Assembly (NCBI GenBank): GCA_049317265.1
Contig: JBMOIP010000001.1
Coordinates: 140,685 to 204,684 of the forward strand
DNA: 64,000 nucleotides
Reading direction: 5' to 3'
Source: Bacteroidales bacterium
Lineage (GTDB): Bacteria; Bacteroidota; Bacteroidia; Bacteroidales; FEN-979
The position numbers and the translations under genes are program-made. Below, in pieces: positions 20,689 through 39,903 of this stretch. Every line of letters starts with the position of its first letter. Positions within the stretch are counted from its first letter, which is position 1. The notes under the pieces were generated by a model. That model did no database searches, was not told the DNA's origin, and saw only the letters and a list, made by a program, of their open reading frames with translations.

Positions 20689-20743
20689 GGACGACTCAAT
20701 GGGTTACCGTAATTGTGCTAAATCGTTTGAATTCGTTGAAAAG

Positions 20744-20751
20744 CAAAAATA
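20744..20751 (-). promoter_or_regulatory. Candidate -7 box (TATTTTTG) for the 18733-20688 gene
   Basis: Plus strand CAAAAATA. It lies 56 nt upstream of the ATG at 20688. Confidence 0.35.
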
Positions 20752-20775
20752 GCTTAATTTTCACTATTTCTATAT

Positions 20776-20783
20776 TATCTTTG
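20776..20783 (+). promoter_or_regulatory. Candidate -7 box (TATCTTTG) for the beta-helix gene
   Basis: Matches TAnnTTTG 34 nt upstream of the ATG at 20817. This supports 20817 rather than 20622 as the start. Confidence 0.4.
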
Positions 20784-20816
20784 TCTCCTAACAGTGTCAT
20801 TACAAAATCTGACCCT

Positions 20817-26077: not shown

Positions 26078-27031
26078 TTATTTTTCAAGTTCTTCTTTGA
26101 TCTTTTTACTGATGATGGCTGCCCCGGCGGGATTTACATGATCGGCGTTGAAAAAATACCAGGGCTTGCCATGAAATTCGTTCCTGTAATCAAATATACG
26201 GAAATCACTGCAGGTTTTACGGGTAAGGGCAACAATATCCCGGTCAAGTTTGTCAATATCTACCAGCTTTCTGGCATATTTTAAATATTCATCGGTGAGG
26301 GGCATCCGCAACAAAACGAGATGGATGTCATACTGTTTACAAACGTCAAGTATCTTAAGATAGTACGTTGTTTCCCCCAGGGTCGATTTTTTACCGTAGC
26401 TGGCAAGGTAGGCGCTTGCCACTTCATAACCCAGCGCCTCCCGGTTGGGTTCCTTTGCGAAGTTCTTGTAATTTCTCGCAGGGAAGTACCCGTGCTTTAT
26501 CTTATGCATGTCGGCATTGAAGAAGAGGACCGACATGTAAATGAATTTGTAATTTCCCACATAGGAGAAAAAAGTGCCGGTGACCCAGTTTAAAAGGTAG
26601 CCAGGGTCATGGTGTTCCCTTGCAAGTTCAATGTAATCGAGGTATTTTCTCCAATATCCATCAAATGTCAGGTCATTTTCGGCGCGGGGACTGAAATTCA
26701 CCGGGTCGACGGAAAGCAGGATGTACTCCGGTTTTTTATGGGCTATTTCAAGGATATATTTTAGTTTGTAATAGGTTTGTTTGTATACCTCCTTGGGCGT
26801 GATATAACAGAAGCCATGACCGAGAATTTCCGGGTTGACCCTGTTGTGAGAATTGCCGAGCATCAGGTATTTGAGGGTGTCGGAACTCGCTTTAAATTGT
26901 TCATCCTGGTTCCTGGCCAGCCGGAAGTAGTACATCCAGCGGTCATAGGCCATGTTCAGCCCTGCATTCAGCACCAGAACCAGGATGGTGAAGACGATCA
27001 ATTTCTTAAAAAAGAGCCTGTTCCGGTTCAT
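26078..27031 (-). CDS. Membrane-anchored partner of the MBOAT (AlgX/AlgJ/DltD-like role, DUF1574-like)
   Basis: It has an N-terminal TM helix and sits 2 nt downstream of the MBOAT gene. The motif LMLGNSH near the N-terminus resembles an SGNH-like block I. The assignment rests mainly on context. Confidence 0.4.
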   Translation of the reverse strand: MNRNRLFFKKLIVFTILVLVLNAGLNMAYDRWMYYFRLARNQDEQFKASSDTLKYLMLGNSHNRVNPEILGHGFCYITPKEVYKQTYYKLKYILEIAHKKPEYILLSVDPVNFSPRAENDLTFDGYWRKYLDYIELAREHHDPGYLLNWVTGTFFSYVGNYKFIYMSVLFFNADMHKIKHGYFPARNYKNFAKEPNREALGYEVASAYLASYGKKSTLGETTYYLKILDVCKQYDIHLVLLRMPLTDEYLKYARKLVDIDKLDRDIVALTRKTCSDFRIFDYRNEFHGKPWYFFNADHVNPAGAAIISKKIKEELEK

Positions 27032-27033
27032 GG

Positions 27034-28485
27034 TTAAAATTGAAAATAGAAAAACTTCTGACTCGAATAAACGCCAAAAACAAGAATGAACATCACCATC
27101 AGCAGGTAGGCAGCATATCGTACATGGATGGGTTTGTTCATGAATTTTACGGTAAGGGATTTCATGGCAACCTGGTATTCAAACCAGAGCATAAAGATAA
27201 TCAGAAGAATACCCAGGATAAAATCGTTGTTCTTTACCAGTTCCATCATGGATGAACCGGTATGGCTGAAGTCGGTGAGATTCCTGATCATCAGGAAAGA
27301 GTCGCTGACCGGATGCTGGCCAAAGAAAAATCCCGTTGATGATACCAGTAAAAAGGTGGCTGCGATATTCAGTGTCTGTAGTAATTTCGGTGAATTGGCC
27401 AGTCCGGTTATCCTGTTGAAAGATGCCAGTGCCGGCTTATAAACATTCGCCAATACCATGTAGGTGCCATGGAGAAATCCGAAGATGATGAAATTCCAGT
27501 AGGGGCCATGCCAGAAACCCACCAGCACAAACGTGATGACGAGGTTGAGGTTAAGCCGCCATTGTACTGCTTTCCCGTGGTAATTGAAGGGAAGTGAAAA
27601 GTAGACATAGTCGCGCAGCCAGGTGGTCAGCGAGATGTGCCAGCGGCTCCAGAATGCAGCCACCGACTGGGCGCTGAATGGCCGGTTGAAATTAGGGCTG
27701 AGCCTGAAACCCATGAGCCGGGCAGAACCGATGGCTATGTCGGTATACCCTGAAAAATCGGCATAAACCTGCATCATCTTCATGACGATTCCAACTCCGA
27801 TTTCGATTCCATGGAAATATCCAGGCTCCGAATAGATGGCCTGGACAAATATCGACAACCGGTCGGCAATGACAATTTTTTTAAACAGGCCCCAAAGAAT
27901 CAGGCGCATGCCGCTTGCGAAGAGTTGCGGATCAAAGGTATGTTCAACATGGAACTGGGGAAGCAATTTCCGGCCACGCTCAATTGGTCCGGCCAGTACC
28001 AGCGGGAAAAACGAGACAAACAGCGCGTAGATTCCGGGGTTCTTTTCCGGTTTGATTACGCCACGGTACACATCGATGGTGTAACCAATGGTTTGAAAGG
28101 TATAGAACGAGATGCCAACAGGCAACAGGATACTGTAATAGGGAATCGAATAACTTCCCCCGGTGATGCCGATGAACAGGTTGGATATCTCAGTAAAAAA
28201 GCCAAGATATTTGAAGAAAAAGAGCATGCCCAGGTTAATGACCAGTGAAAAAGCCAGGTATTTGAACCGTTGTTTCTTTCCAGGAAGTTTCCCCATTTGC
28301 AGGGCGGAATAATAGGAAACCAGGGTGGCGCTCATCAGAACCAGGACAAATTCCACCTTCCAGAGAAGGTAAAAGAAGTAGCTTGCAGCGAGAAGAAGCA
28401 ACCAGCGCCAGCGGAACGGAAGGATGTAATAGAGCAGAACCGTGACAGGAAGAAAAAAGAGGTAGCCAACGGAGTTGAAAAGCAT
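27034..28485 (-). CDS. Membrane-bound O-acyltransferase (MBOAT; AlgI/DltB family)
   Basis: FWSRWHISLTTWLRDYVYF and GFWHG, with the conserved His, plus about 10 TM helices. Confidence 0.85.
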   Translation of the reverse strand: MLFNSVGYLFFLPVTVLLYYILPFRWRWLLLLAASYFFYLLWKVEFVLVLMSATLVSYYSALQMGKLPGKKQRFKYLAFSLVINLGMLFFFKYLGFFTEISNLFIGITGGSYSIPYYSILLPVGISFYTFQTIGYTIDVYRGVIKPEKNPGIYALFVSFFPLVLAGPIERGRKLLPQFHVEHTFDPQLFASGMRLILWGLFKKIVIADRLSIFVQAIYSEPGYFHGIEIGVGIVMKMMQVYADFSGYTDIAIGSARLMGFRLSPNFNRPFSAQSVAAFWSRWHISLTTWLRDYVYFSLPFNYHGKAVQWRLNLNLVITFVLVGFWHGPYWNFIIFGFLHGTYMVLANVYKPALASFNRITGLANSPKLLQTLNIAATFLLVSSTGFFFGQHPVSDSFLMIRNLTDFSHTGSSMMELVKNNDFILGILLIIFMLWFEYQVAMKSLTVKFMNKPIHVRYAAYLLMVMFILVFGVYSSQKFFYFQF

Positions 28486-28499
28486 AACTTGCCTGTATA

Positions 28500-29198
28500 T
28501 TATTTCGTGATGGGATCAGCGCCTGCAGCAATATACCATGTTCCTTCATGGGTTTCGGTCCGTTCAACAGGATGGGGGTATGTTTTCAATAGTTCCTCAA
28601 AACGCTGTGCCAGTCCCAGTTTATAATCGGCAGGTTCAAACAAAACCTTGGTGGTTTGATCATTTCCTGCAAGCGCACGCACCGCTTTTCTGATCTTTCC
28701 GGCTTTTTGTTCAAAGCGTTCACGGGTTATTTCATACTGCTGGTGATCTAAATGCTCCTGTCCTTCAGAGAGATGATATCCGAGTTGCAGGTTAAAGTTA
28801 ATGGCATTCGTGTTCGACCGCATGATATGGGCATATTGCTTGTTCCATCCGAGGAAATAGAATGTGGTTTCAATACCGGCAACCGACACCAGGTAAGGCA
28901 CGAAAGTGCTGTAAAATTCGGTACGGCCTAAAAAAATGCCCGATTCAGAGGATTTCGACTCCCAATCGATGTTTTTATCGTTCAGAAGCCCGATTTTTTC
29001 TCCCTGGTAGTAGATCATGAGGAAATTGGATTGCAGGTTGTTGACGCTGTCAAACCATTGCCGTTGCTGTTCTGATGAGATGATCTCCCGGTAGTTCATG
29101 TTCAGCCGCACCGGATCGGAGTTGCGCCACTGCCTCACCAGTTCAATGTCCTCCTCCTTCAGCCGCTCGAGGATGATTCCGTATTTAAAGAACTTCAT
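28500..29198 (-). CDS. GNAT-type N-acetyl/acyltransferase (PseH-like N-terminal region)
   Basis: ILERLKEEDIELVRQWRNSDPV...QQRQWFDSV...IYYQGEKIGLLN resembles GNAT sugar N-acyltransferases. It overlaps the upstream gene by 14 nt. Confidence 0.45.
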   Translation of the reverse strand: MKFFKYGIILERLKEEDIELVRQWRNSDPVRLNMNYREIISSEQQRQWFDSVNNLQSNFLMIYYQGEKIGLLNDKNIDWESKSSESGIFLGRTEFYSTFVPYLVSVAGIETTFYFLGWNKQYAHIMRSNTNAINFNLQLGYHLSEGQEHLDHQQYEITRERFEQKAGKIRKAVRALAGNDQTTKVLFEPADYKLGLAQRFEELLKTYPHPVERTETHEGTWYIAAGADPITK

Positions 29199-30129
29199 CG
29201 TTCAGTACGGTTTTGATGGAAAAGGGCGGCTTCCGGTTCTGCACCATGTAAATCCTGCTCAGGTACTCGCCAATAACTCCCAGCGACAGTAAAATAATGC
29301 TGGTTGAAAACAGGATGGTCACGATCAGTGCCGTAAATCCCATGATCGGAATGCCATGAACGAGTTTCCGGTAGATAAACAGGATGCCGGTGATGAAACT
29401 CAGCAATGCAGAGACGAATCCCCCGTAAACCATCATCTTCAGCGGCATGGCGGTGTAATAGATGATCAGGTTGGAGAGCATTGAAAAAAGGGAGCGTGAC
29501 GTATATGTTGACTGCTGGTAGGGCCGTTTTTGATGATCCACCAGCACAAAAACCATATGATTGGTGTACCAGTTGAAAAGTTCGTCGATGTAGATGAAGT
29601 TGAGCTGGTGGTTGAGCAGGTTTTTTCCAAGGGATGATTTCATCAGCCTGAAGGAAGAACCATTGCCTTTGGTTTTGAAAATCCGGCGCGACCAGCCTTT
29701 CAGCGCCCCGCTACCCAGGTTCCTGGCCATGGAGTGGTGTTTCTTGCCGTAGATGCCGTAAACCAGGTCGGCATCTGAATCTTGCATGGTGTCGATCAGT
29801 TTGATGATCTCTTCCGGTGGATTCTGCAGGTCGTCGTCAATGGTAATGATGAACTCCCCGGAAGCCTGGGCAATCCCGCAAATGGTGGCATTGTGCTGTC
29901 CGAAGTTCCTGGCAAGCCGGATGGCAATCACCTTCTCCGGGTTTGCCCGTTGAATGGATTCAAGGATTTTCCAGCTGGTATCAGCGCTGTCGTCATCCAC
30001 AAAGATCACCTCGAAACTTTTATCAATCTTGTTCATCGTCTGCCCGATCCGCAGGAAAAGTTCCTCCAGCGATTCACAACTGTTATAAACCGGGACAACG
30101 ATCGAATAATCAGGTTTTTTCATATGCAT
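29185..30129 (-). CDS. Family-2 glycosyltransferase, ArnC/GtrB-like polyprenyl-phosphate sugar synthase
   Basis: YSIVVPVYNSCESL, VIFVDDDSADTSW and ITIDDDLQNPPEE form the GT-A DxD region. Two C-terminal TM helices (MMVYGGFVSALLSFITGILFIY, ALIVTILFSTSIILLSLGVIG) are typical of the ArnC/GtrB/DPM1 subgroup. Confidence 0.75.
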   Translation of the reverse strand: MHMKKPDYSIVVPVYNSCESLEELFLRIGQTMNKIDKSFEVIFVDDDSADTSWKILESIQRANPEKVIAIRLARNFGQHNATICGIAQASGEFIITIDDDLQNPPEEIIKLIDTMQDSDADLVYGIYGKKHHSMARNLGSGALKGWSRRIFKTKGNGSSFRLMKSSLGKNLLNHQLNFIYIDELFNWYTNHMVFVLVDHQKRPYQQSTYTSRSLFSMLSNLIIYYTAMPLKMMVYGGFVSALLSFITGILFIYRKLVHGIPIMGFTALIVTILFSTSIILLSLGVIGEYLSRIYMVQNRKPPFSIKTVLNDEVL

Positions 30130-30132
30130 AGG

Positions 30133-30867
30133 TCAGCCTCCTCCCAGGATCAGGTTCGTGGCGCTCACCCATTTGGATGCATCTGCCAGGTAAAAGATGA
30201 TGGTGTTGGCAACATCCACCGGATCGCCGAGGCCCAATAGCTGGCGTTCTTCAATTTTATCAACTGCCTCCCTGGAAAAATTCTCCGCGGTCTCATCCAG
30301 CATGGGGGTGCGTACAAAGGCAGGGGAGATGCAGTTCACCCGCGTACCCCGTGAGGCCAGCTCAAGGGCAAGTACGCGCGCATAGGCCTCCAAAGCCGCT
30401 TTGGCGCTGATGTACATGGCGCCTCCGACAAACGGATAACGGGTGGAAATGGAGGAGATAAACACGATGGAGCTGCTCTCCTTTGCAAGCTTTTTCTTTC
30501 TTAAAATCCCCGCAGTAAGGAGAACGGAGGCATTGAAACTGATGCGGAAGGTATTGGAAATGGTCTCTTCGGTAATAAACCGGGCAGGGGAAAGTTCTGA
30601 AATTCCGGTACTGTGAACCAATCCTTCAATAACAGGCAATCCTGCCACCAGCCGGTCTATGTCTGCCTGGATGGTCAGGTCGGCAATAACCTGGAGGTGC
30701 CCGTCCCCGTGAAGTGATTGAAATGTCTCGTCAAGCCTGACGGCATTGCGTCCAGTGATAATTACCCTCGCGCCATATTCACTGGCGGTGATGGCAGTTT
30801 GCCTGCCCAGTCCTGAAGAGGCACCGGTGACCAGGACTGTTTTACCTTTCAGATCGAATGCGTTCAT
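30133..30867 (-). CDS. Short-chain dehydrogenase/reductase (FabG-like ketoreductase)
   Basis: The cofactor motif is VTGASSGLGR and the catalytic motif is YISAKAALE (YxxxK). ATGA overlap with the upstream KASIII gene. Confidence 0.85.
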   Translation of the reverse strand: MNAFDLKGKTVLVTGASSGLGRQTAITASEYGARVIITGRNAVRLDETFQSLHGDGHLQVIADLTIQADIDRLVAGLPVIEGLVHSTGISELSPARFITEETISNTFRISFNASVLLTAGILRKKKLAKESSSIVFISSISTRYPFVGGAMYISAKAALEAYARVLALELASRGTRVNCISPAFVRTPMLDETAENFSREAVDKIEERQLLGLGDPVDVANTIIFYLADASKWVSATNLILGGG

Positions 30868-31949
30868 TCCCGGGGAGATTGAAGTGGGACGAATTCCTGT
30901 TCAGTGAGTTCCGGAACCACCATGCCATCGGTTTCAATCAGTACCGTCCCCCATGAAAGCCCGATTCCGAAGGCTGATAGCAGCAGTTTCTGAGGTTTTT
31001 CAGCCAGGAGGTCGCCGATCTGGGTGACCATGGTCAAGGGGATGGAGGAACAACTGGTATTGCCAAAGTCGTGCAGCGAATAGGGCACCCTGGCTGCATC
31101 AACCTTTAACATCTTACGCAGGGTTTCGTTGATGAGGCGGTTGGCCTGGTGAAACAGCAGGAAATCGAACTCGTCGAGCTGGCGGTTGAAATGTTTGAGT
31201 GTTGTCTTTATATTTGGGACTACTTCACGCAGGGAAAAGTTAAACACTTCGATGCCGTTGAGTGCTATGTGCAGCCGGTTGCGGTAAATCCCGTCTCCAT
31301 ATTTTTTCACGGTGAACGATTTTTTGCTTGCCAGGTTGCGCACTCCTCCATCAGGGATAATGATGGCGTCATAGCCGCTGCCGTCGGTTTGCAGGTTGAA
31401 CTGCATGGGGGCATGTCCCGGCTTTAATTCCAGCGCCGTAGCCGTACCGGCATCTCCAAATAACGGGAAGGTGCTTTTATCACGGTAGCTGGAAGTCACA
31501 TTGGAGAGGTCTCCAACCAGCAGCAATCCTTTGCTGATCCCGGTGGTTTTTATCAGGCTGCTGATAACCGATAGGCCATACACATAGCCCGAACACCCTA
31601 AGTTGATATCGATGGCCATGCACGATTTCGGAAGTTTCAGCCTGTCCTGGAGGATCGTGGAAGTGGAAGGGATGATGTAATCTCTTGATTGAGAAACGAA
31701 AATCAGGATTTTTATTTCACCCCGATCCCAACCGAGTTTGTCTAAAAGTTGTTCTGCAGCCTGGAAGCAGAGGTCGGAGGTGGTTTGCCCGGGCTCCGCC
31801 ACGTGACGCGTTTCCACTCCGATCATCTGGATCACCTGGTCCCGCTCTTTCTGCGTGATCCAGTTGTAATCATGATTGGATAGTGTTTTTTTTGGAACGC
31901 ATGCCGATATTCCGGCAATCCTCACATCAGGTATCTCAAAAAGCGCCAT
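30864..31949 (-). CDS. 3-oxoacyl-ACP synthase III (FabH-like KASIII) with an intact Cys-His-Asn triad
   Basis: INLGCSGYVYGL (Cys), FLLFHQANRLI (His) and FGNTSCSSIPL (Asn). Confidence 0.85.
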   Translation of the reverse strand: MALFEIPDVRIAGISACVPKKTLSNHDYNWITQKERDQVIQMIGVETRHVAEPGQTTSDLCFQAAEQLLDKLGWDRGEIKILIFVSQSRDYIIPSTSTILQDRLKLPKSCMAIDINLGCSGYVYGLSVISSLIKTTGISKGLLLVGDLSNVTSSYRDKSTFPLFGDAGTATALELKPGHAPMQFNLQTDGSGYDAIIIPDGGVRNLASKKSFTVKKYGDGIYRNRLHIALNGIEVFNFSLREVVPNIKTTLKHFNRQLDEFDFLLFHQANRLINETLRKMLKVDAARVPYSLHDFGNTSCSSIPLTMVTQIGDLLAEKPQKLLLSAFGIGLSWGTVLIETDGMVVPELTEQEFVPLQSPRE

Positions 31950-31989
31950 GGATATCCCCGGTTGATCTGTTATTTAAACTGAAACTACA

Positions 31990-31997
31990 CAAAAGTA
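31990..31997 (-). promoter_or_regulatory. Candidate -7 box (TACTTTTG) for the six-gene KASIII operon
   Basis: Plus strand CAAAAGTA, 41 nt upstream of the ATG at 31949. Confidence 0.4.
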
Positions 31998-32027
31998 CTT
32001 TTTTTTTCGTTATCGACCCCATTTTTC

Positions 32028-32035
32028 TAATTTTG
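32028..32035 (+). promoter_or_regulatory. Candidate -7 box (TAATTTTG) for the FAAL-carrier gene
   Basis: Matches TAnnTTTG 47 nt upstream of the ATG at 32082. A hairpin at 32044-32065 would lie in the leader. Confidence 0.4.
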
Positions 32036-32081
32036 CCAGAGATGGAGGAGGAGGCCTCTTCCTCCTTAACCTGTTGAAAAG

Positions 32082-34127
32082 ATGAACTTAACGAACCCCG
32101 TTCCCATTCCCGGAGACCTGCCGCTGAAACCCGGCCAGGCTACCATTGTTTCTGTTCTGAGGGAGCGGGCTCTCATACATCCTGGGAAGAGGGCATTTAC
32201 CTTCCTCGCCGATGGTGAGGCGGAAGCGGGTTCCATAACCTATGGCGATCTGGATATCGCCGCACGCAATGTGGCGCATAAATTGGAAGTATTGGAACTG
32301 AAGGGAAAGACCGTGCTGATGTTCTACCCTCCCGGGATCGACTTTATCACCGCATTTTTCGGATGCCTCTATTCCGGGACGATTCCCGCTGCAGCCTATC
32401 CGCCCCGTAAAAACCGCTCGGTTCACCGTATCCATACCATCGCAGCCGATTGCGGGGCATCTGCAATCCTGACCACGGAGGTCATTGCCCGGTCGCTTGA
32501 ACGAAACTTTGCGGAAGACCCTTTGCTCGCAGCACTTCCCTGGCATGCAACAGATACGTGGCCGGTTTCTGATCCATCGGTTGTGTATGATACAGAACCG
32601 GGATTCGAAGAGCTGGCATTTCTTCAATATACCTCAGGGTCCACCGGCGACCCGAAAGGGGTGATGGTCAGCCACAGGAACATCATGTACAACCTTCGTT
32701 CGCTGCAGATGATCTTTCAGATAACACCCGGGGATGTTGCATTGCACTGGGTGCCCCAGTTTCACGACCTTGGTTTGATCTTCGGGATCCTGGAGACGGT
32801 CTTCTCAGGCTCATTAACCGTGCTCATCCCTCCCTTCATCTTCATTTCAAACCCGTTTTTCCTGTTGCAGGCAATTACCCGCTATAAGGCCACGGTTAGC
32901 GGACAGCCCGATTTTGCCTTTAATTATTGTGTCGAAAAAATCGATGAAGAACACCGGAACAGGCTTGATCTCTCCTCCCTCCGGGTAATGTACAGCGGCG
33001 CTGAGCCTGTCAGAAAAACGACCCTCGACCGCTTCTATGAAACTTTTTCCGCCGTCGGACTGAAAGCGGAGTCTTTAATCCCTGCCTATGGAATGGCTGA
33101 ATCAACCCTGATCCTTGTAGGCGGATCGATTACTGAACCACCGTTTTATCTCCCGGTGAGCACATCAGCGTTGGAGAGAAACCTGGTGGTTCCGGCCAGT
33201 GACCATGGGCAAGGCGCAGATATACAGTGGATTGCCAGCAATGGCAAGACAAAGATGGATACAGCCATTCTTATTGCTGATCCAGATACATGTGAAGTTT
33301 TGCAACCCGGGAAAATCGGGGAGATCTGGGCGAAAGGAAGTACGGTCACCATGGGGTATTTCGGCAAACCCGGCCTGACGGAAGCCATCTTCAAAGCTAC
33401 ACCTGCAGGTCAGAACGATCCGGTCTGGTTGCGTACAGGTGATCTGGGATTTCAATACAACGGGGAACTATTCATCACCGGACGGCAGAAAGACCTGATC
33501 ATCATCCACGGCCGGAATTTCTATCCCCAGGATATTGAGGAAGTTGCTGAAAATTGTCACTCTTCCATCAGGAACACATGTACTGCGGCCTTTTCGATCG
33601 AGCATAACGGAAAGGAGAGGCTTGCCATCGTGGCAGAATTAAAACGTTCGATTTTGCCCCATGATACAGCGTCCATCCTGGATGCCGTTGTTTCAGCAGT
33701 TTCCCGCGAATTTGAGATACAGCCCCTGCGGATTGCCCTGGTCAGAACAGGCGCTATCAGGAAGACATCCAGCGGTAAAATCATGCGTAGGGCCAACCGG
33801 GAATCGCTGCTGCAAGGCAAGTTTGAGGTGATTGCCGACCGCATGTTCGACGATCGGGAAAACCCTGCCGCTGATCCCGACGGGATGGAGTCGCTCAGCC
33901 TGGAGCAATTCCTGCTGGTATGGGTTTCACGGCACCTGAACGAAGGTTCACCGGCTGATCCGCTCAAAAGTCTGCCCGCATATGGGCTTGATTCACTGAA
34001 AGCAGTTGAACTGAGTGAGGAGACTAAAAGCCTGTTTGGATTTGAATGGCCTCCCTACCTGTTTTTCGAGGAGATATCCATACAACAGGTGGCCAAAGAA
34101 GGAATGTCATTAATGGAACAGCGATAG
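32082..34127 (+). CDS. Fatty acyl-AMP ligase (FAAL) fused to a C-terminal phosphopantetheine carrier domain
   Basis: AFLQYTSGSTGDPKGVMVSHRN is an FAAL-type A3 motif. WLRTGDLGF and SSGKIMRR are also present. The C-terminal carrier has LPAYGLDSLKAVEL. Confidence 0.85.
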   Translation: MNLTNPVPIPGDLPLKPGQATIVSVLRERALIHPGKRAFTFLADGEAEAGSITYGDLDIAARNVAHKLEVLELKGKTVLMFYPPGIDFITAFFGCLYSGTIPAAAYPPRKNRSVHRIHTIAADCGASAILTTEVIARSLERNFAEDPLLAALPWHATDTWPVSDPSVVYDTEPGFEELAFLQYTSGSTGDPKGVMVSHRNIMYNLRSLQMIFQITPGDVALHWVPQFHDLGLIFGILETVFSGSLTVLIPPFIFISNPFFLLQAITRYKATVSGQPDFAFNYCVEKIDEEHRNRLDLSSLRVMYSGAEPVRKTTLDRFYETFSAVGLKAESLIPAYGMAESTLILVGGSITEPPFYLPVSTSALERNLVVPASDHGQGADIQWIASNGKTKMDTAILIADPDTCEVLQPGKIGEIWAKGSTVTMGYFGKPGLTEAIFKATPAGQNDPVWLRTGDLGFQYNGELFITGRQKDLIIIHGRNFYPQDIEEVAENCHSSIRNTCTAAFSIEHNGKERLAIVAELKRSILPHDTASILDAVVSAVSREFEIQPLRIALVRTGAIRKTSSGKIMRRANRESLLQGKFEVIADRMFDDRENPAADPDGMESLSLEQFLLVWVSRHLNEGSPADPLKSLPAYGLDSLKAVELSEETKSLFGFEWPPYLFFEEISIQQVAKEGMSLMEQR

Positions 34128-34137
34128 CTGAACGGGT

Positions 34138-34371
34138 TTATTGCACCCGCGATTCGATGATGTGAAACAGGTCTGCAACGGTATTGGAGGTGGCAATATC
34201 CTCGGCATTAATCGTAACATCGTATTCAACCTTGACCATCGCAATGAGGATAAGTGCATTGATGGAGTTCCATTCAAAAACTTCCCTGAAGACACTTTCG
34301 GGTGTAAGTGTACCAGGTTTCAGGTCCTCATACTCCTCTTCAAGTTTGGCGATGAAATCTTCAATCTTCAT
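34138..34371 (-). CDS. Stand-alone acyl carrier protein
   Basis: 77 aa, acidic and helical, with EWNSINALILIAMVKVEYDV at the position of the Ppant-Ser helix II. Confidence 0.65.
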   Translation of the reverse strand: MKIEDFIAKLEEEYEDLKPGTLTPESVFREVFEWNSINALILIAMVKVEYDVTINAEDIATSNTVADLFHIIESRVQ

Positions 34372-34390
34372 AAGACTTTGTATTAAAGGG

Positions 34391-34398
34391 CAAAGGTA
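34391..34398 (-). promoter_or_regulatory. Candidate -7 box (TACCTTTG) for the ACP gene
   Basis: Plus strand CAAAGGTA, 20 nt upstream of the ATG at 34371. Confidence 0.4.
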
Positions 34399-34474
34399 AG
34401 AATTTTTCAGACATATGGCAGGTAGCTGACTTATTCGTTACTTTGCAGTCTGATTATACAATTAAAGATTGTCT

Positions 34475-36175
34475 ATGCCCCAAACGAGTGAATATTACCA
34501 CCCACACCTTACCCTTCCGGATTTACTATACCGGGCGGCAAAAAGCCCCAATCCGTTGTTTGTCGCCTATATGAACGAAAGCGGCAATTTAAAAACCCAA
34601 ACATATAGGGAATTGCTGCATGAGGCGGAGAAAATTGCTTCGGGTTTGTCGAACCTGGGTTTGCACCAGGGCGATCATATCATCATCGCAACAAGATATA
34701 ACCAGGAGACGGTGGAACTCCTGTGGGGATGTTTCCTGTTGGGAATTGTTCCAACCATTATGCAGCCGCCAATGACCTTTTCCGGGTATAACCCCTCAGT
34801 GGTGAAGATGATGAATGTCTACGACCAGTTGAAAGAGCCCTTTGTTTTTGTCAGCCCGGAAGTGATCGATTCAGGGAACCTGCCATCTGAAAAAGTACGG
34901 CACAGAGCGGATCTTGATTGTACAGGTTCCTTTCCGAAACCGGTTCTGAATACCAATGACCTTGCCTTTATCCAGTTCTCTTCGGGCAGTACAGGCGATC
35001 CGAAAGGGATTATGCTCACCCATGGAAACCTGATGGTCAATATGGATGGCATCCGCACAGGGCTTAACGTGCACTATCCTGACAGGACAGGCAACTGGAT
35101 GCCGCTGTATCATGACATGGGGTTGATCGGTTATCACTTTACACCGATGTACAGCTTGTCGGACCAATACCAGGTTGAGACCATTGATTTTATTATGAAG
35201 CCGGGATTGTGGCTTGACCTGATGGGAAGGAATCAAATTGCCATTTCCGGTGGAACAAACTTTGCGCTGGCATTGGTTTTAAGGCATTTAAAACGGAGCA
35301 AGCCGTTGCTGGACCGGGATTTCTCCTCCATGAAAGCCCTGTTGAACGGTGCAGAACCGATTTCCGTGAAGATCATGCAGGAGTTTGTCGATTCGCTGGT
35401 ACCCTTCGGATTCAGGCCGGAAGCCATGATGCCGGTTTATGGCATGGCCGAAGCCACCCTGGCCATTTCATTTACTCCCCTGATGCAGCCATCTGTGATA
35501 ACCGCATTTGATGCTGTTCTCCTTGACCGTGAAAACCTGGCCACTCCTGTTGATCCTTCCGACCCGCAGGCACGTGTGCTCTCAGCCGTGGGCGTGGCGT
35601 TGAATGATGTTGAAGTTACTATCCTGGATGCTGAAGACCATCCGGTAGACACTGGGACGTCAGGCCAGATCCATTTGAAGGGAAGTTCCATCACGGCAGG
35701 CTATTACAATAAGCCCGGTTCAACCGCATCTGCCTTTTACGGAGAGTGGTTGCGGACAGGCGATATCGGGTTCTTTTTTAAAGGAAACCTTTATATCAGC
35801 GGCCGGCAAAAAGACATCATTTTTAAAAACGGGCGTAACTATTTTGCCAATGACCTGGAGGACATGGCTTGCACAATTGATGACATTACGTATGGAAAAG
35901 TTTGCGTTGGCGGGACCACCGACAGGGTAACTGGTCATGACAAGGTCATTGCATTCCTGGCCGGCGTGCCTGAACAAAAAGCTCCGGACGTATTTCGACG
36001 GTTAAGGGCGCTGCTGCGCAGCAACCTTGGGATCACCGTTGATGAAGTGGTCCTGATCAAATCAAACGAAATTCCAAAAACTTCCAGCGGAAAACTGCAG
36101 CGGTTCAAACTGATGCAACGATATAACAACGGGGAGTTTGACGACAGGATTATCAAGTCGTTGCAACTGGAATAG
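34475..36175 (+). CDS. Second fatty acyl-AMP ligase / adenylate-forming enzyme (no fused carrier)
   Basis: AFIQFSSGSTGDPKGIMLTHGNL, WLRTGDIGF and TSSGKLQR. I take the start at the ATG at 34475 (the ORF track uses the TTG at 34469). Confidence 0.8.
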   Translation: MPQTSEYYHPHLTLPDLLYRAAKSPNPLFVAYMNESGNLKTQTYRELLHEAEKIASGLSNLGLHQGDHIIIATRYNQETVELLWGCFLLGIVPTIMQPPMTFSGYNPSVVKMMNVYDQLKEPFVFVSPEVIDSGNLPSEKVRHRADLDCTGSFPKPVLNTNDLAFIQFSSGSTGDPKGIMLTHGNLMVNMDGIRTGLNVHYPDRTGNWMPLYHDMGLIGYHFTPMYSLSDQYQVETIDFIMKPGLWLDLMGRNQIAISGGTNFALALVLRHLKRSKPLLDRDFSSMKALLNGAEPISVKIMQEFVDSLVPFGFRPEAMMPVYGMAEATLAISFTPLMQPSVITAFDAVLLDRENLATPVDPSDPQARVLSAVGVALNDVEVTILDAEDHPVDTGTSGQIHLKGSSITAGYYNKPGSTASAFYGEWLRTGDIGFFFKGNLYISGRQKDIIFKNGRNYFANDLEDMACTIDDITYGKVCVGGTTDRVTGHDKVIAFLAGVPEQKAPDVFRRLRALLRSNLGITVDEVVLIKSNEIPKTSSGKLQRFKLMQRYNNGEFDDRIIKSLQLE

Positions 36176-36181
36176 TCCATG

Positions 36182-37273
36182 TCATTGTTTTGGCGCCGTT
36201 TTCTTTCCAACCAGGCGCATATAGATCTTCAGAAGGATCAGTGATTTGAAAAACCACCACTGGCTTACTTTGTAGGGCAGGTAGGTGCCAAATACCATCA
36301 CCGACAACAGGATATAGTTATAGGCCAGCATCGGACTTGATTTCAGAAACAGCAGGAGGTTGAATCCATTGTTCTCCCGCCTGTAACCCAGCCGGTCGGC
36401 ATATTTGCCTGCAATCTGGTCGGCTGTCCTGACTTCTTCCGGTGAGAGAACACTCTGCCAGGTGTTCATCCGCCCGGTATTGATCGGTTTCATCAGGTTC
36501 TCATGGAACTTTTCATAGATGAAATTGCCGTACGTATCCACGGTCTCCTCTTTCTTCTTGTGAAAATCGAATACCGAAGGATCATAGGCAATGGCGAGAA
36601 ATTCGCATAACGACCTGAAGGTAGCCTCCTGGTCTGTCACAAGATCTTCGTAGCGGAGAATGTAATACTTTTCAGGGTACCGGCGCTTCAGGTTAAGAAA
36701 CAGGCGGGTAAAATAGCGCCACCTGCCTACCTGCAGACTGATTTGAGGAGCCTCGACCGCCACCTCTTTTTCTGCAAGTTTTTTGATGGAGATGAAATTA
36801 TCGCGGTAATCCCTGATGATGCAGATGAACTTTGCTTCGGGAAAGATCTTCCTGAACCGGTTGGCCGACATGGAGTAGACCGGGTTCTTGTCGCCGATCC
36901 AGAGGGTCTCTTCTTTGGTGTATAATGAAAATGCGTAATAGTTGATGCATTTTAAAAAGAGCTGGATAGATCCTTTATCCTGGTATCTCAATAGTTCGCT
37001 GACGATATGTTCTTTGTCAAACTTCAGGTTTTCAACCCGCCGTACATTGAATTTTGAAAAGTAGAATACATGATCCACAAAGGACCGGATGGTGGTTTCA
37101 TCCCATTTTTTAACTTTCCTGAACCGCTGGTACAAAAACAGCATGACCGGGAACTCCGGGGCGATCCTGATGTTCGGATGCGCATTGAAGAGGGTTGTGA
37201 GCAGGGTTGTGCCCGAACGCGGTCTTCCAAGGATAAAAAAAATCGGAATCTTACTTAGGTCTTCTGTTTTCAT
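36182..37273 (-). CDS. PAPS-dependent sulfotransferase with a hydrophobic C-terminal tail
   Basis: The 5'-PSB loop is ILGRPRSGTTLL and the 3'-PB region is IIRDYRDNFIS. The C-terminus LLLFLKSSPMLAYNYILLSVMVFGTYLPY looks like a TM segment. I take the start at the ATG at 37273 (MKTEDLSK), overlapping the flippase gene by 23 nt. Confidence 0.7.
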   Translation of the reverse strand: MKTEDLSKIPIFFILGRPRSGTTLLTTLFNAHPNIRIAPEFPVMLFLYQRFRKVKKWDETTIRSFVDHVFYFSKFNVRRVENLKFDKEHIVSELLRYQDKGSIQLFLKCINYYAFSLYTKEETLWIGDKNPVYSMSANRFRKIFPEAKFICIIRDYRDNFISIKKLAEKEVAVEAPQISLQVGRWRYFTRLFLNLKRRYPEKYYILRYEDLVTDQEATFRSLCEFLAIAYDPSVFDFHKKKEETVDTYGNFIYEKFHENLMKPINTGRMNTWQSVLSPEEVRTADQIAGKYADRLGYRRENNGFNLLLFLKSSPMLAYNYILLSVMVFGTYLPYKVSQWWFFKSLILLKIYMRLVGKKTAPKQ

Positions 37274-38570
37274 TGAAAATCTTTTTGAAATCGCGCATAA
37301 AGTAGAAATCACTTTTCCTGATTCTCAGGATTTCAGTCAATGGCATTTTGATCAGCCTGGAATAAACGATGATAAATGCGATGGAACCAATTCCATAGCT
37401 GATGTTTGTAGCCCATGCGGCGCCTATTCCGCCATACCGGGGGATGAGGAAGAGGTTGGCAATGAAATTAATGACCAGTGCTGGTAAAAAGGTATAGATG
37501 GCAATCTGCGGTTTCCCCATCCCGGTCAGGCGGCTGTTGAGAATCCGGAATCCTATCAGCAGAAGGATCCCCGGTAGCACCACCTGGATGAGCCGAGCGC
37601 TGTGTGAAAACTCCTTGCCGAAGATCAGCGGAATCAGGGGAGGGGCAACCACGAAGATTACTACCCCGGCAATAAAGCCGATGATCAGGGAAACCCTGAA
37701 GATGGAGGCTACCGTGCGGTGAACCTGCTTGTCATCATTGGAATTGGCGCTGCGGCTGAGAATGATGGTTTCGATGGCCAGTGGGACATGCCACAACTGT
37801 TCGGCAATCTGCATGGCGAGGCTGTAAAAGCCTACCTCTTCCAGGGTGGAGAGCTTTTTCAGCATCAATATATCCAGCCGGTAATTCAACTGCATGATAA
37901 ACACGGCAATGGCATTCACCAGGCCCAGTTTGATCATGCTTTTCATGATCCCTTCATGATATTTCCAGGTAATGTTGTACCGGAACTGTACGATGATGAT
38001 GCGGTAGGTCATGAAAAACATGATGAAATTGGCAAGGGCAATGGCCAGGAAGGCGCCAAGGACCGACATCTTCAGGCCCCAAACGAACAGGATTGTGAGT
38101 AGCAGGGTCATGATGGTTGGGCCTGCATTGAGGATGCTGGCTCGTTTAATGTCCTCTTTTCCAAGGAAAATTCCGCCGGCAAAAACATTGGTCAGCAGGA
38201 GCGGGATTGTGAGCAGAACAAGTACGATAATCAAAGGGTCAAAAGGCTGGCTTGACGAAAAGAAGTAGACAAACCCGCAGATCAGGATGCTCAGCATGCT
38301 GGTCCACAACAACAGCAGGAACAATGCCGAGACGATATGGTCCTCAGGAAGGAGTTTGTTGCCGATATGGTAGATGGTGCTCCTGCGGATCCCCAGCTGG
38401 GTAAAGCCGATCACCATGATCGGAACCACGATGATGGCCGAATAGAGACCAAACCCTGCCGCCCCAAGCCACCGTGTCAGGATCACGCCAATGGCTAGGT
38501 TGCAGAAGGTCACCGTAAGGTTACTTCCGAGCAGGCTGAGGATATCGCGCAGGTAGGTTCTTTTCGCCAA
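37251..38570 (-). CDS. Wzx-type polysaccharide/oligosaccharide flippase (MOP superfamily)
   Basis: 439 aa with about 12 TM helices. The N-terminus LLGSNLTVTFCNLAIGVILTRWLGAAGFGLYS is of the Polysacc_synt type. The only in-frame start after an upstream stop is TTG. Confidence 0.7.
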   Translation of the reverse strand: MAKRTYLRDILSLLGSNLTVTFCNLAIGVILTRWLGAAGFGLYSAIIVVPIMVIGFTQLGIRRSTIYHIGNKLLPEDHIVSALFLLLLWTSMLSILICGFVYFFSSSQPFDPLIIVLVLLTIPLLLTNVFAGGIFLGKEDIKRASILNAGPTIMTLLLTILFVWGLKMSVLGAFLAIALANFIMFFMTYRIIIVQFRYNITWKYHEGIMKSMIKLGLVNAIAVFIMQLNYRLDILMLKKLSTLEEVGFYSLAMQIAEQLWHVPLAIETIILSRSANSNDDKQVHRTVASIFRVSLIIGFIAGVVIFVVAPPLIPLIFGKEFSHSARLIQVVLPGILLLIGFRILNSRLTGMGKPQIAIYTFLPALVINFIANLFLIPRYGGIGAAWATNISYGIGSIAFIIVYSRLIKMPLTEILRIRKSDFYFMRDFKKIFNENRRPK

Positions 38571-38604
38571 ATGTCAGGAAATAGAAAAATGCATTAATTT
38601 CGCA

Positions 38605-38612
38605 CAAAATTA
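38605..38612 (-). promoter_or_regulatory. Candidate -7 box (TAATTTTG) for the flippase-sulfotransferase unit
   Basis: Plus strand CAAAATTA, 35 nt upstream of the start at 38570. Confidence 0.4.
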
Positions 38613-38641
38613 GGAGATTATCCGCACTAAGCAATTTTTTG

Positions 38642-38680
38642 GTGAACTAGTGAACTAGTGAACTGGTAAACTGGTAAACA
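38642..38680. repeat. Octamer tandem repeat (GTGAACTA x2, GTGAACTG, GTAAACTG, GTAAACA)
   Basis: Read directly. There are five units with a stepwise change of unit variant, in the divergent intergenic region between the flippase and wecE-like genes. Confidence 0.9.
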
Positions 38681-38690
38681 ATTTCAATTG

Positions 38691-38710
38691 CCTCGGCCTT
38701 CAGGCCGAGG
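38691..38710. promoter_or_regulatory. Perfect 8-bp GC hairpin abutting the first ATG of the wecE-like ORF
   Basis: CCTCGGCC-ttca-GGCCGAGG lies immediately before the ATG at 38711. Confidence 0.4.
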
Positions 38711-38740
38711 ATGGAGAAAAATGTTGATATAATTAATATC

Positions 38741-39877
38741 ATGCAGATCCTGTTCAACAAACCATATATCCCCTGGATTTCCCTCTGGCACCTGATCAGG
38801 GGGACATTTTCCGGTACGATTGCCGGGAATGGCACCTATACCAAAAAGTGCCACCGGTTTTTCGAAGATCGGTTCGGGTTTAACAAGGTGCTGATGACCA
38901 CTTCCTGCAGCGATGCCCTGGAGATGTCGGCCCTGCTGTGCAGGATCGGGCCGGGAGATGAAGTGATCATGCCTTCGTTTACCTTCATGTCAACCGCTAA
39001 TGCATTCATTATCCGCGGTGCAAAGGTGGTTTTTGCAGATACCCTGCCGGATGTTCCGAACATCGATCCCCGGGCTATTGAACCCCTGATCACTCCAAGA
39101 ACAAAAGCCATTGTGGTTGTCCATTACAGCGGACTGGCCTGCGATATGGACACCATCATGGAAATTGCCGCCCGCCATAACCTGTTTGTGGTGGAAGACG
39201 CCGCCCATGCCATCGATTCCTTTTACCGTGGAAAACCACTGGGATCCATCGGACACTTCGGTACCTTCTCCTTTCATGAAACAAAAAATATCATCTCAGG
39301 CGAGGGCGGCCTGCTCATCATCAATCAACCTGAATTTGCAAAAAGGGCTGAAATTATCTGGGATAAAGGGACTAACCGCGCAGCCTTCTACCGGGGTGAG
39401 ATCGATAAATATGGTTGGGTGGATATCGGCTCTTCGTACCTCCCTTCCGATTCTGTTGCCGCGTTTTTGTTTACCCAGATATCCCGGTTCGACCGAATCC
39501 AGTCAAAACGAAAAAAGGTGTGGTGGAATTACTACGAAGCACTTCATTCGCTGGAGGAGAGCGGTCGCCTTAAACGTCCTGTTGTTCCTGATTATGCAAC
39601 GGTGAACGGGAATATATTCTATATAACCCTACAAACCCCGGAAACCAGGGATAAACTCATGGCATTCCTCAAAGCCAGGGGTATCAATGCCCTTTTTCAC
39701 TACCTGCCACTGCATTCCAGCCCCTATTTTATCGATAAACATGATGGCCGTGAACTTCCCAATACCGACATGTTTTCTTCATGCATCCTTCGTTTGCCGT
39801 TTTATAATTCTTTGAAAAAGAGTCAGATAAACTATATCGTAAAGAGTATTGGCAAATTCTGCGAGGAACATAAATAA
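38741..39877 (+). CDS. wecE: dTDP-4-amino-4,6-dideoxyhexose (WecE/RffA-type) PLP aminotransferase
   Basis: Long collinear similarity to E. coli WecE as I remember it: GDEVIMPSFTFMSTANAF, VVVHYSGLACDMDTIMEIA..HNLFVVEDAAH, FSFHETKNIISGEGGLLIIN and KGTNRAAFYRGEIDKYGWVDIGSSYLPSD. The start is ambiguous (38711 or 38741). I prefer 38741 (MQILFNKPYI) because the hairpin abuts 38711. Confidence 0.8.
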   Translation: MQILFNKPYIPWISLWHLIRGTFSGTIAGNGTYTKKCHRFFEDRFGFNKVLMTTSCSDALEMSALLCRIGPGDEVIMPSFTFMSTANAFIIRGAKVVFADTLPDVPNIDPRAIEPLITPRTKAIVVVHYSGLACDMDTIMEIAARHNLFVVEDAAHAIDSFYRGKPLGSIGHFGTFSFHETKNIISGEGGLLIINQPEFAKRAEIIWDKGTNRAAFYRGEIDKYGWVDIGSSYLPSDSVAAFLFTQISRFDRIQSKRKKVWWNYYEALHSLEESGRLKRPVVPDYATVNGNIFYITLQTPETRDKLMAFLKARGINALFHYLPLHSSPYFIDKHDGRELPNTDMFSSCILRLPFYNSLKKSQINYIVKSIGKFCEEHK

Positions 39878-39903
39878 AAAAGCCGGACAATGCCCGGCTT
39901 TAA
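39878..39903. terminator. Hairpin terminator after the wecE-like gene
   Basis: AAGCCGG-acaatgc-CCGGCTT is flanked by an A-run upstream and T/A downstream. It begins 3 nt after the stop codon. Confidence 0.5.

Follow-up and report, generated by a model that had tools for sequence, protein, structure and literature searches.

Why would a Bacteroidales bacterium encode side by side two fatty acyl-AMP ligases (FAALs), a membrane-bound O-acyltransferase (MBOAT), an amino-sugar aminotransferase, a flippase and a sulfotransferase (ST)? This question is raised by a locus at positions 26078-39877 of a 64,000-nucleotide stretch, hereafter the window, of contig JBMOIP010000001.1 (GenBank assembly GCA_049317265.1). 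The open reading frame (ORF) coordinates make both ends exact: the stop end of a gene for a membrane-anchored SGNH-type protein lies at 26078 and the end of a WecE-type aminotransferase gene at 39877. The original prediction, made from the window alone, announced 13 genes there; we count 12 ORFs with domain support, and the gene list of that prediction also names 12. The observation of the locus is otherwise confirmed, its coordinates and domain assignments being borne out by ORF ends, domain searches and catalytic motifs. We see an even chance that the locus is a functional unit, built of three nested modules, that modifies an extracytoplasmic envelope glycoconjugate. It would combine an Arn-like route to an N-acylated 4-amino-6-deoxyhexose with carrier-protein-fed acylation by an MBOAT-SGNH pair and with sulfation in the cytoplasm.

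Conservation of the locus and its nested modules

A scan of relatives, with one genome per species and the gene of the FAAL fused to an acyl carrier protein (FAAL-ACP) as anchor, yielded 13 loci from Bacteroidales metagenome-assembled genomes (MAGs) in which the locus is complete or runs to the contig end. The carriers are uncultured Bacteroidales, Prolixibacteraceae, Draconibacterium and Lentimicrobium from freshwater and sediment. The gene order of the window is found in ten loci (L001-L009 and L011, with 62-90% protein identity) and also in L164 and L165, and the same content occurs rearranged in L010, L012 and L013 (49-83% identity). In all, the gene set is co-conserved in at least 15 related loci from independent assemblies. 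The 3-ketoacyl-ACP synthase III (KASIII) and the short-chain dehydrogenase/reductase (SDR) are the most conserved of its proteins, the FAAL-ACP and the SGNH-type partner of the MBOAT the least.

The left half of the locus is a run of six minus-strand genes, from 31949 down to 26078, encoding KASIII, SDR, a family 2 glycosyltransferase (GT2), a GNAT-type acyltransferase, the MBOAT and its partner. It is almost certainly one operon, because the successive junctions (4-nt overlap, 3-nt gap, 14-nt overlap, 14-nt gap and 2-nt gap) never exceed 14 nt. A divergent intergenic region of 132 nt (31950..32081) separates it from the right half, in which orientations alternate: FAAL-ACP (+), free ACP (-), second FAAL (+), ST (-), Wzx-like flippase (-) and WecE (+). 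No promoter is called in it, because the sigma-70 scan, with a model that does not cover Bacteroidota promoters, stayed at chance level; over the whole scan, promoter and terminator sites were no more numerous than in shuffled sequence. It thus separates the two halves by position only. A palindromic GC-rich hairpin followed by a T-run (39879..39901; 10-bp stem with 6 GC pairs) lies directly 3' of the WecE stop and, from its position only, is the probable right boundary of the locus.

Related loci with smaller gene sets reveal how the locus is assembled. L014, L015 and L017 encode WecE, a DUF2147 protein, an ST, the partner, the MBOAT, another ST, FAAL-ACP and Wzx, with a second FAAL-ACP in L017, and contain no GT2, GNAT, KASIII, SDR or free ACP; their flanks, read from sequence, are housekeeping genes (PPK2-like upstream, SufBCDS-like downstream). 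L081 and L082 combine an ST, a FAAL resembling the second FAAL of the window, a family C glycosyltransferase (GT-C) with tetratricopeptide repeats (TPR), the MBOAT, the partner, DUF2147, WecE and a bPH_4 protein, beside glycyl-tRNA synthetase. Without any WecE gene, L065 and L077 (from Phaeodactylibacter and another member of the Bacteroidota) present two ST-like genes and FAAL-ACP, directly followed by the MBOAT and an ORF with a transmembrane (TM) anchor; the block of L077 adjoins Wzm/Wzt-like ABC transporter genes and a Wzx-like gene. For the partner-like ORF of L077, profile comparison with the family of the window's partner was non-significant (hhalign probability 4%), and no homology is claimed for the Saprospiraceae protein. 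Two further sets come from other phyla. In L061 (Anaerolineae, 419-6194), a five-gene operon with overlapping stops and starts encodes two partner proteins, an MBOAT with the motif FIYQGF, an ACP and a FAAL; in L080 (Planctomycetota), an AcpS-like gene, a partner and an MBOAT adjoin a FAAL and an ACP.

The oldest layer, across Bacteroidota, looks like the combination of ST, FAAL(-ACP), MBOAT and partner. In Bacteroidales, a middle layer adds WecE, DUF2147 and either Wzx or GT-C, and an innermost layer, in the window's group, adds the KASIII-SDR-GT2-GNAT genes, the free ACP, the second FAAL and a B12-binding radical-SAM gene. The nested modules define minimal gene sets of eight genes in L014 and five in L061. 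This structure divides the single-pathway reading with which we began: the genes are indeed co-conserved, but the locus is modular, and the combination of ST, FAAL(-ACP), MBOAT and partner also occurs on its own.

The radical-SAM gene (492 aa) lies between ST and Wzx in L001 (15378-16856), L004, L009 and L011, with 70-100% identity among them, and after the ACP in L010, L012 and L013, with 58-59% identity. At this place in the window, the 3' end of the Wzx gene overlaps the start of the ST gene (37251-37312), which suggests that a C-methylation or similar step was lost in this genome. The window copy is a reduced variant of the full locus, because the radical-SAM and DUF2147 genes are absent and the cognate GT-C gene, described below, has moved away.

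The DUF2147 protein is secreted, has a Thr/Pro/Ala-rich linker, and is encoded beside WecE in three locus types (L014:3706-4398, L017:3001-3615 and L081:11060-11797). In the window, from which it is missing, a DUF4890 protein (25717-26040) adjoins the partner gene.

A rare and recurrent association of FAALs with MBOATs

The recurrence of FAAL genes beside MBOAT genes was compared with a control of 80 metagenomic loci whose MBOATs are 31-43% identical to that of the window, a level matching that of L061, L065, L077 and L080. The flanks of these control loci total 622 kb, and in 52 loci they reach 2.5 kb or more on one side; none of the 80 loci encodes a FAAL. Identity level was rejected as a definition of the FAAL-linked MBOATs, generic MBOATs being equally similar (31-43%) to that of the window. 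In a neighbour-joining tree of 88 MBOATs, the FAAL-linked proteins of Bacteroidota form one clade (bootstrap 72/100); support is 89/100 for the Bacteroidales members, and the full loci together with L081 reach 100/100. The MBOATs of L061 and L080 fall elsewhere in the tree, and their linkage to FAALs therefore arose independently. From these comparisons, the association of FAALs with MBOATs appears to be rare among MBOATs, recurrent and old. Since the minimal loci offer acyl-ACP no user other than the MBOAT, we infer that the MBOAT performs a fatty acylation fed by a carrier protein.

The MBOAT and its SGNH partner

The MBOAT (27034..28485, minus strand) matches PF03062 with 77 bits, and its best NCBIfam match is DltB (TIGR04091; 154 bits, below the cut-off of 375). 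Its C-terminus carries FFYFQF at 478-483, corresponding to the acyl-shuttle motif FxYxxF, which occupies the C-terminus in 8/8 FAAL-linked MBOATs; the WH pairs at 282 and 325, which include the catalytic His, are invariant in the same eight. A C-terminal FxYxxF together with the catalytic His is a feature that this protein shares with the PatA/AlgI-type MBOATs.

The partner (26078..27031, minus strand; 317 aa) gave no match in sequence searches of Pfam, including its DltD family, NCBIfam and the PDB, and its relatives show a faint DUF1574 match. It contains an N-terminal hydrophobic (TM) helix at residues 5-30, and the motif GNSH (with Ser61) and the pair Asp297-His298 are invariant across 28 homologues. 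Foldseek comparison of its AlphaFold2 model (pLDDT 87.8) with the PDB returned DltD structures as all of the top 10 matches (E 7e-6, with modest TM-scores of 0.43-0.49), followed by SGNH esterases and PatB. The partner thus has the anchor, the Ser, Asp and His residues and, in its model, the DltD-like fold of a membrane-anchored SGNH protein.

In PatA, the FxYxxF motif carries an acyl-Tyr intermediate that is handed to the SGNH partner, and in Dlt systems, where a carrier protein serves as donor, the motif resides on DltX, a microprotein of its own (PMC12148441). The pair encoded in the window is PatA-like in its shuttle and Dlt-like in its partner and genomic company. The two proteins had at first been taken for mere O-acyl tailoring enzymes. 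That assignment, and O-acetylation in particular, is unlikely because ST, FAAL(-ACP), MBOAT and partner also occur without sugar genes: the minimal loci encode no acyltransferase besides the MBOAT that could use the FAAL-ACP product, and the best fold match of the partner is DltD.

Amino-sugar, lipid-carrier and transfer genes

The identity of WecE (38711..39877, plus strand), already proposed, is secured by the equivalog model NF008687 (517 bits, cut-off 375) and by TIGR02379 (466 bits, cut-off 435); with the ArnB model NF008658 it reaches 202 bits, where the cut-off is 631. The PLP lysine lies in a HETK motif. The predicted entry point is therefore the conversion of dTDP-4-keto-6-deoxyglucose to a dTDP-4-amino-4,6-dideoxyhexose. 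WecE is the only protein of the locus that passes a curated equivalog cut-off: ArnC, DltB, PseH, FabH and FAAL models top the match lists of their respective genes, yet below cut-off.

The GNAT protein (28500..29198, minus strand) matches Acetyltransf_3/4, has a C-terminal extension of about 80 aa, and has as sole NCBIfam match the PseH model TIGR03585 (61.5 bits, below the cut-off of 93). In Foldseek, its AlphaFold2 model (pLDDT 91.7) resembles PseH (4ri1, TMq 0.60) and FdhC (5kta, TMq 0.61), the latter deposited as a 'nucleotide-linked sugar GNAT'. Enzymes of the FdhC type carry the annotation of 3-hydroxybutanoyl transferases that act on dTDP-amino-dideoxyhexoses (PMC4869667). These resemblances agree with the sugar N-acyltransferase that had been proposed, although SpeG fits the model equally. 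A homologue search added no new gene context, the listed matches all being at least 67% identical.

The GT2 protein (29185..30129, minus strand; PF00535, 98.6 bits) was assigned to the ArnC/GtrB/PgfS type. It aligns with the ArnC model over residues 8-311 of 314, with 166.8 bits, below the cut-off of 529, and contains a DDDLQNPPEE motif. This nearly full-length alignment and two C-terminal hydrophobic segments (232-257 and 255-296) agree with the ArnC/GtrB-like enzyme with a C-terminal TM pair of the original prediction. By analogy, the protein is predicted to transfer the sugar to polyprenyl phosphate. The Wzx-like flippase (37251..38570, minus strand), of the MOP family, is a 439-aa protein with about 10-12 hydrophobic segments and matches to Polysacc_synt_3, Polysacc_synt, MatE and MurJ.

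A transfer step in the periplasm had been postulated, and a protein that could perform it is encoded as a conserved neighbour of related loci: a GT-C of about 680 aa with PMT_2 (34.8 bits, cut-off 26.1) and TPR domains. Its gene is embedded in L010, L012, L013 and L081, adjoins the partner gene in L165 and comes after DUF4890 in L164; in L001, L003, L004 and L008 it is found upstream of the TonB gene. These proteins form one orthologous group with 40-75% identity. The MAG of the window has its ortholog, P0403 (MFZ4520134.1), on the same 315-kb contig outside the window; it stands 30 protein accession numbers before the partner (MFZ4520164.1), hence, by accession order, about 30 genes upstream. 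This PMT_2+TPR GT-C is probably the periplasmic transferase that is absent from the locus itself.

In L010 (3713-6112), of the Lentimicrobium type, a gene convergent with the GNAT gene has a product of 799 aa. This protein, whose weak matches are glucosamine-6-phosphate isomerase-like and PIG-L deacetylase-like, could be an ArnD-like deacylase or unrelated.

The acyl-building genes

The KASIII protein (30864..31949, minus strand; ACP_syn_III and ACP_syn_III_C) possesses the intact catalytic triad that had been reported for it, with Cys119 (in CSG), His267 (HQAN) and Asn297 (GNT). It scores 219 bits with the FabH-type model PRK09352, under the cut-off of 249, and its best PDB match is 4efi (E 8e-68). 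The SDR (30133..30867, minus strand; adh_short, 130 bits) is a FabG-like 3-ketoacyl reductase with KR domain and FabG subfamily matches and the motifs TGASSGLG (TGxxxGxG) and YISAK (YxxxK); at 75-90% identity in relatives it is among the most conserved proteins of the locus. Because both genes are packed in the operon of the GNAT gene, a 3-hydroxyacyl donor for the GNAT, as would be expected by analogy, is plausible.

The FAAL-ACP (32082..34127, plus strand; AMP-binding, 216 bits) has a DIP2-like C-terminal domain and a PP-binding domain at 626-672, with the motif DSL at 637 and the carrier serine Ser638. The second FAAL (34469..36175, plus strand; AMP-binding, 171 bits) has no carrier domain and is only about 27% identical to the first. 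The two are putative FAALs by family similarity: their top full-length NCBIfam matches are FAAL families (373 and 349 bits, all below the cut-offs), the latter value being that of the second FAAL with PRK09192 (cut-off 600), and no DltA model figures among the 25 best NCBIfam matches shown for either.

The free ACP (34138..34371, minus strand; 77 aa) has a PP-binding match of 25.2 bits, above the cut-off of 20.8, and is 74-89% identical in relatives, where its position is unchanged. Its Ser36 lies in NSI (35-37) and not in DSL, Asn replacing the usual Asp before the phosphopantetheine Ser. The gene is antisense between the two FAAL genes, an arrangement kept in all relatives.

Head-to-head olefin synthesis of the OleABCD type was considered and rejected, the KASIII scoring as FabH and an OleB-like hydrolase not being present.

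The sulfotransferase

The ST (36182..37312, minus strand; Sulfotransfer_3, 111 bits) contains both motifs for 3'-phosphoadenosine 5'-phosphosulfate (PAPS), PRSGTT and RDYRD, and its true start is probably Met14, at 37273. Among solved structures, tyrosylprotein sulfotransferases (1e-16) are closest to it, followed by the ST domains of olefin synthase (OLS; 9e-13) and CurM (4e-11). A TM anchor was dropped, the C-terminal tail being hydrophobic yet below the TM threshold used. Since PAPS is cytoplasmic, sulfation would precede export and take place in the cytoplasm. Candidate substrates are the lipid-linked sugar and 3-hydroxyacyl-ACP, the latter by analogy with CurM and OLS. No Bacteroidota variant has FAAL and MBOAT without an ST, and the presence of an ST even where sugar genes are absent mildly favours the acyl chain or a common acceptor as the target. 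In L010, L012 and L013, the ST is only 38-39% identical to that of the window, far below the 49-83% of its neighbours, so that the gene may have been replaced during evolution.

A possible pathway

We propose the following scheme. In a first module, a FAAL would load a fatty acid on a carrier, either the fused ACP of the FAAL-ACP or the free ACP; the MBOAT would take the acyl group, on the periplasmic side, onto the Tyr of its C-terminal FFYFQF; and the partner would pass it via Ser61 to the acceptor. In a second module, RmlAB, encoded elsewhere, would make dTDP-4-keto-6-deoxyglucose, WecE would convert it to dTDP-4-amino-4,6-dideoxyhexose, and the Wzx flippase, the PMT_2+TPR GT-C or both would handle the lipid-linked sugar. 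In a third module, KASIII and SDR would extend and reduce an ACP-bound chain to 3-hydroxyacyl-ACP, the PseH/FdhC-like GNAT would acylate the 4-amino group, and the ArnC-like GT2 would move the N-acyl sugar to polyprenyl phosphate, after which it would be flipped and transferred by the GT-C to the acceptor. The ST would act in the cytoplasm, on the lipid-linked sugar or on 3-hydroxyacyl-ACP. A dedicated five-gene block that N-acylates perosamine in Vibrio cholerae O1 is a precedent (PMC3441752).

A more specific version, which we hold tentatively and below an even chance, sees the core of ST, FAAL(-ACP), MBOAT with FxYxxF and DltD-like partner as an unrecognised class of MBOAT-SGNH systems, a kind of 'lipid Dlt' of Gram-negative Bacteroidota with independent analogues in Anaerolineae and Planctomycetota. 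A carrier-borne long-chain, possibly sulfated, hydroxy-acyl group, in place of the acetyl of acetyl-CoA, would here cross the inner membrane and lipidate a periplasmic or outer-membrane glycan bearing the 4-amino-6-deoxyhexose.

Several observations weigh against these proposals. Wzx-type flippases usually move polyprenyl-diphosphate-linked oligosaccharides and not polyprenyl-phosphate-linked monosaccharides. In this genome, the cognate GT-C is encoded about 30 genes from the locus, and the radical-SAM gene is cleanly absent. The minimal loci carry WecE yet no glycosyltransferase, leaving the link between amino sugar and MBOAT unexplained, and no ACP is encoded within 13.6 kb in L081. Both FAAL types adjoin the MBOAT (the FAAL-ACP type in L014, the second type in L081), so that the two FAALs of the window cannot be assigned to separate routes. 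SpeG, which fits the GNAT model as well as the sugar enzymes, is a polyamine acetyltransferase. The hand-off from FAAL to MBOAT is read from gene context only, the support for the MBOAT clade is moderate, in a distance-based tree, the MBOATs of L061 and L080 lie outside the Bacteroidota clade, and all sequences come from MAGs. Finally, fused-motif MBOAT systems use acyl-CoA and have no carrier protein (PMC12148441).

This last point would suit the pathway first envisaged for the locus, in which both FAALs, the ACPs, KASIII and SDR serve solely to make the N-acyl chain of a single 4-amino-4,6-dideoxyhexose, the MBOAT and its partner perform an O-acetylation from acetyl-CoA like PatA/PatB or AlgI/AlgJ, and sulfation is tailoring. 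The translational packing of KASIII, SDR, GT2 and GNAT and the likeness of the GNAT to PseH and FdhC fit it as well. We nevertheless regard it as unlikely: FAAL(-ACP), MBOAT, partner and ST persist without GNAT, KASIII, SDR and GT2 (L014, L015, L017, L065, L077 and L081), in which reduced loci acyl-ACP has no other user; the FAAL, ACP, MBOAT and partner sets of L061 and L080 are left unexplained; and no FAAL stood beside any of the generic MBOATs of the control.

Could the locus only supply donor sugar and tailoring to a conventional pathway of Wzx/Wzy or ABC-transporter type that makes O-antigen or capsule, with the rest encoded elsewhere and the GT2 adding a side-branch sugar in the manner of Gtr? 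The original prediction had already noted that rmlA/rmlB, an initiating phosphoglycosyltransferase, Wzy, Wzz and additional glycosyltransferases were missing and that the locus seems not to be a complete O-antigen or capsule locus. Both remarks hold: none of these genes or further glycosyltransferase domains is found among the listed window ORFs of at least 150 aa (no complete ORF being listed in the final ~5.8 kb), and a phosphoglycosyltransferase, a polymerase, a chain-length regulator and several glycosyltransferases were not found in the 64-kb window. Partner genes must then exist elsewhere, as this explanation requires, and it would also account for the usual substrates of Wzx and for the L077 block beside Wzm/Wzt-like and Wzx-like genes. 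On the other hand, the locus moves as a compact block, and in the window and in loci of the L014, L081, L164 and L165 types its flanks are unrelated housekeeping or type IX secretion system (T9SS)/TonB genes. We consider a conventional pathway quite improbable, and it overlaps our proposal of an envelope-modifying unit insofar as the acceptor could be such a polymer.

Still less probable, to the point of being a marginal candidate, is a free sulfated lipid or hydrocarbon, made by a dissociated OLS/CurM cassette or by the logic of mycobacterial sulfolipid-1, with the sugar genes as mere neighbours. FAAL-ACP, condensing enzyme, ketoreductase, ACP and a Sulfotransfer_3 ST are all present, the ST always occurs with FAAL and MBOAT in the Bacteroidota loci, and the solved structures closest to the ST include the ST domains of OLS and CurM; but tyrosylprotein sulfotransferases are closer, KASIII and SDR share an operon with GT2 and GNAT, WecE is linked to the module in three locus types, and no thioesterase or alpha/beta-hydrolase domain was found in the locus. 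Chance juxtaposition or an assembly artefact without shared function, which the exclusive use of metagenome bins and the alternating orientations of the right half might evoke, is contradicted by the data, the same content, with 49-90% protein identity, having been recovered from 15 or more independent assemblies, 12 of which keep the order.

Comparison with known systems

As proposed here, the locus would merge a lipid-carrier glycosylation of Arn or three-component type with an acylation by an MBOAT-SGNH pair, and would have type II acyl-building genes of its own, as known for N-acylated amino-deoxyhexoses of O-antigens. The proposed sugar route follows the logic of the Arn pathway (ArnB, ArnA, ArnC, ArnD, ArnE/F and ArnT), which adds 4-amino-4-deoxy-L-arabinose to lipid A: there is a 4-aminotransferase of the DegT family, the 4-amino group would be N-acylated, a GT2 whose C-terminus forms a TM pair would place the N-acyl sugar on undecaprenyl phosphate, and a flippase and a candidate GT-C would complete the route. 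The locus differs by WecE, acting on a dTDP-hexose, in place of ArnB, by a MOP-type flippase, by an acyl group that is probably ACP-derived where that of Arn is formyl, and by a GT-C that has TPR repeats and, in this genome, is encoded away from the locus; neither an ArnA formyltransferase/decarboxylase domain nor an ArnD deformylase domain was found in the listed window ORFs of at least 150 aa. With the Dlt system of teichoic acid D-alanylation (DltA, DltB, DltC, DltD and DltX), the locus has in common that the MBOAT and a membrane-anchored SGNH protein are encoded together with an adenylating enzyme and a small carrier protein, and the operon of L061 even has a dlt-like order, with a FAAL, in another phylum. 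In contrast to Dlt, the locus uses FAAL-type enzymes and not DltA, its MBOAT is below the DltB cut-off (154 versus 375 bits), the MBOAT itself bears FxYxxF, in the manner of PatA/AlgI, with no separate DltX, and the host is Gram-negative.

The PatA/PatB and AlgI/AlgJ/AlgX systems have in common with the locus an MBOAT of about 480 aa, with extra C-terminal helices ending in FxYxxF, and a periplasmic SGNH protein; they use acetyl-CoA and no carrier (PMC12148441), whereas the MBOAT subfamily of the locus is linked to FAAL and ACP genes. Private acyl-activating genes beside amino-sugar genes are known from the tetronate genes VC0248-0252 of V. cholerae O1 (PMC3441752), and GNATs acting on dTDP-amino-dideoxyhexoses from the 3-hydroxybutanoyl transferases FdhC and QdhC (PMC4869667). 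Those blocks, unlike the locus, sit inside complete O-antigen clusters with glycosyltransferases and export genes, and they are without the combination of two FAALs, KASIII, MBOAT-SGNH, ST and ArnC-like GT2.

The OLS/CurM architecture, FAAL-ACP-KS-AT-KR-ACP-ST-TE, described for OLS in PMC11837247, parallels the locus in that a FAAL-ACP does the loading, a single condensation and a ketoreduction follow, and the ST belongs to the same Pfam family. The enzymes of the locus are of a dissociated type II and linked to sugar and membrane-transfer genes, and since a thioesterase was not found among them, no decarboxylative elimination is expected. In three-component glycosylation systems, composed of a GtrB/CsbB GT2, a GtrA/GtcA flippase and a GT-C, the polyprenyl-phosphate sugar is used outside the membrane by the GT-C (PMC8035078). 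The GT2 with a TM pair is shared; the flippase of the locus is a 439-aa MOP protein and not a small GtrA, and the donor would be a modified 4-amino-6-deoxyhexose as opposed to glucose or GlcNAc. With the Fuc4NAc branch (WecE/WecD) of the enterobacterial common antigen, the locus shares the WecE equivalog; WecD is not matched by the GNAT, which is PseH-like below cut-off, and WecA, WecF, WzyE and WzzE domains were not found in the window.

The locus is a member of none of the Arn, Dlt, PatA/AlgI, O-antigen N-acyl, OLS/CurM or three-component systems, because its proteins fall below the ArnB, ArnC and DltB cut-offs and DltA, DltX, WecD and the thioesterase are not among them. What it has of their defining features is limited to the WecE equivalog, the fused-shuttle MBOAT and the DltD-like fold. 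The combination had not been recognised as a described pathway when it was first noticed, and our search of the literature likewise turned up neither the locus nor a FAAL-linked MBOAT.

MBOAT-SGNH systems are currently split between Dlt, with a carrier donor and a separate DltX, and the rest, in which acyl-CoA is the donor and the Tyr shuttle is fused. Both types would be bridged by an MBOAT with a fused shuttle that receives its acyl group from a FAAL-loaded carrier, and the MBOAT-SGNH route could then export long acyl chains. Sulfated bacterial glycoconjugates are rare, and if an Arn-like route delivers a sulfated, N-acylated 4-amino-6-deoxyhexose, these abundant anaerobic Bacteroidales, still uncultured, would possess an envelope decoration of a new kind.

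Neighbouring genes in the window

The locus is flanked by genes for a TonB-dependent receptor and the DUF4890 protein on one side and for a BNR/sortilin protein on the other. Back to back 5.4-9.2 kb upstream of it, at 16857-18695 (plus strand, 612 aa) and 18733-20688 (minus strand, 651 aa), lie genes for two paralogous GT-C-type proteins with multiple TM segments and TPR. Over the membrane domain, both are homologous to the PMT_2+TPR protein of L010 (E 3e-31 and 2e-12); the 612-aa protein has a PMT_2 match of 22.5 bits, below cut-off, and the two are only 21-24% identical to the cognate GT-C group, so that their link to the locus is no more than possible.

The window also encodes three large cargo proteins of the T9SS that carry Por_Secre_tail domains: a NosD/beta-helix protein of 813 aa (20622-23063) and proteins of 1360 aa (47587-51669) and 2106 aa (51838-58158). 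The first lies between the TPR genes and the TonB receptor gene, a position that is empty in relatives. Further upstream, an unusual module (10207-16316) consists of a NuoE-like gene (2Fe-2S thioredoxin-like) and a NuoF-like gene, followed by a gene for a 1269-aa fusion protein with Fer2, Fer4, pyridine-nucleotide-disulphide oxidoreductase and molybdopterin oxidoreductase domains, and resembles an electron-bifurcating-type or formate dehydrogenase-like system.

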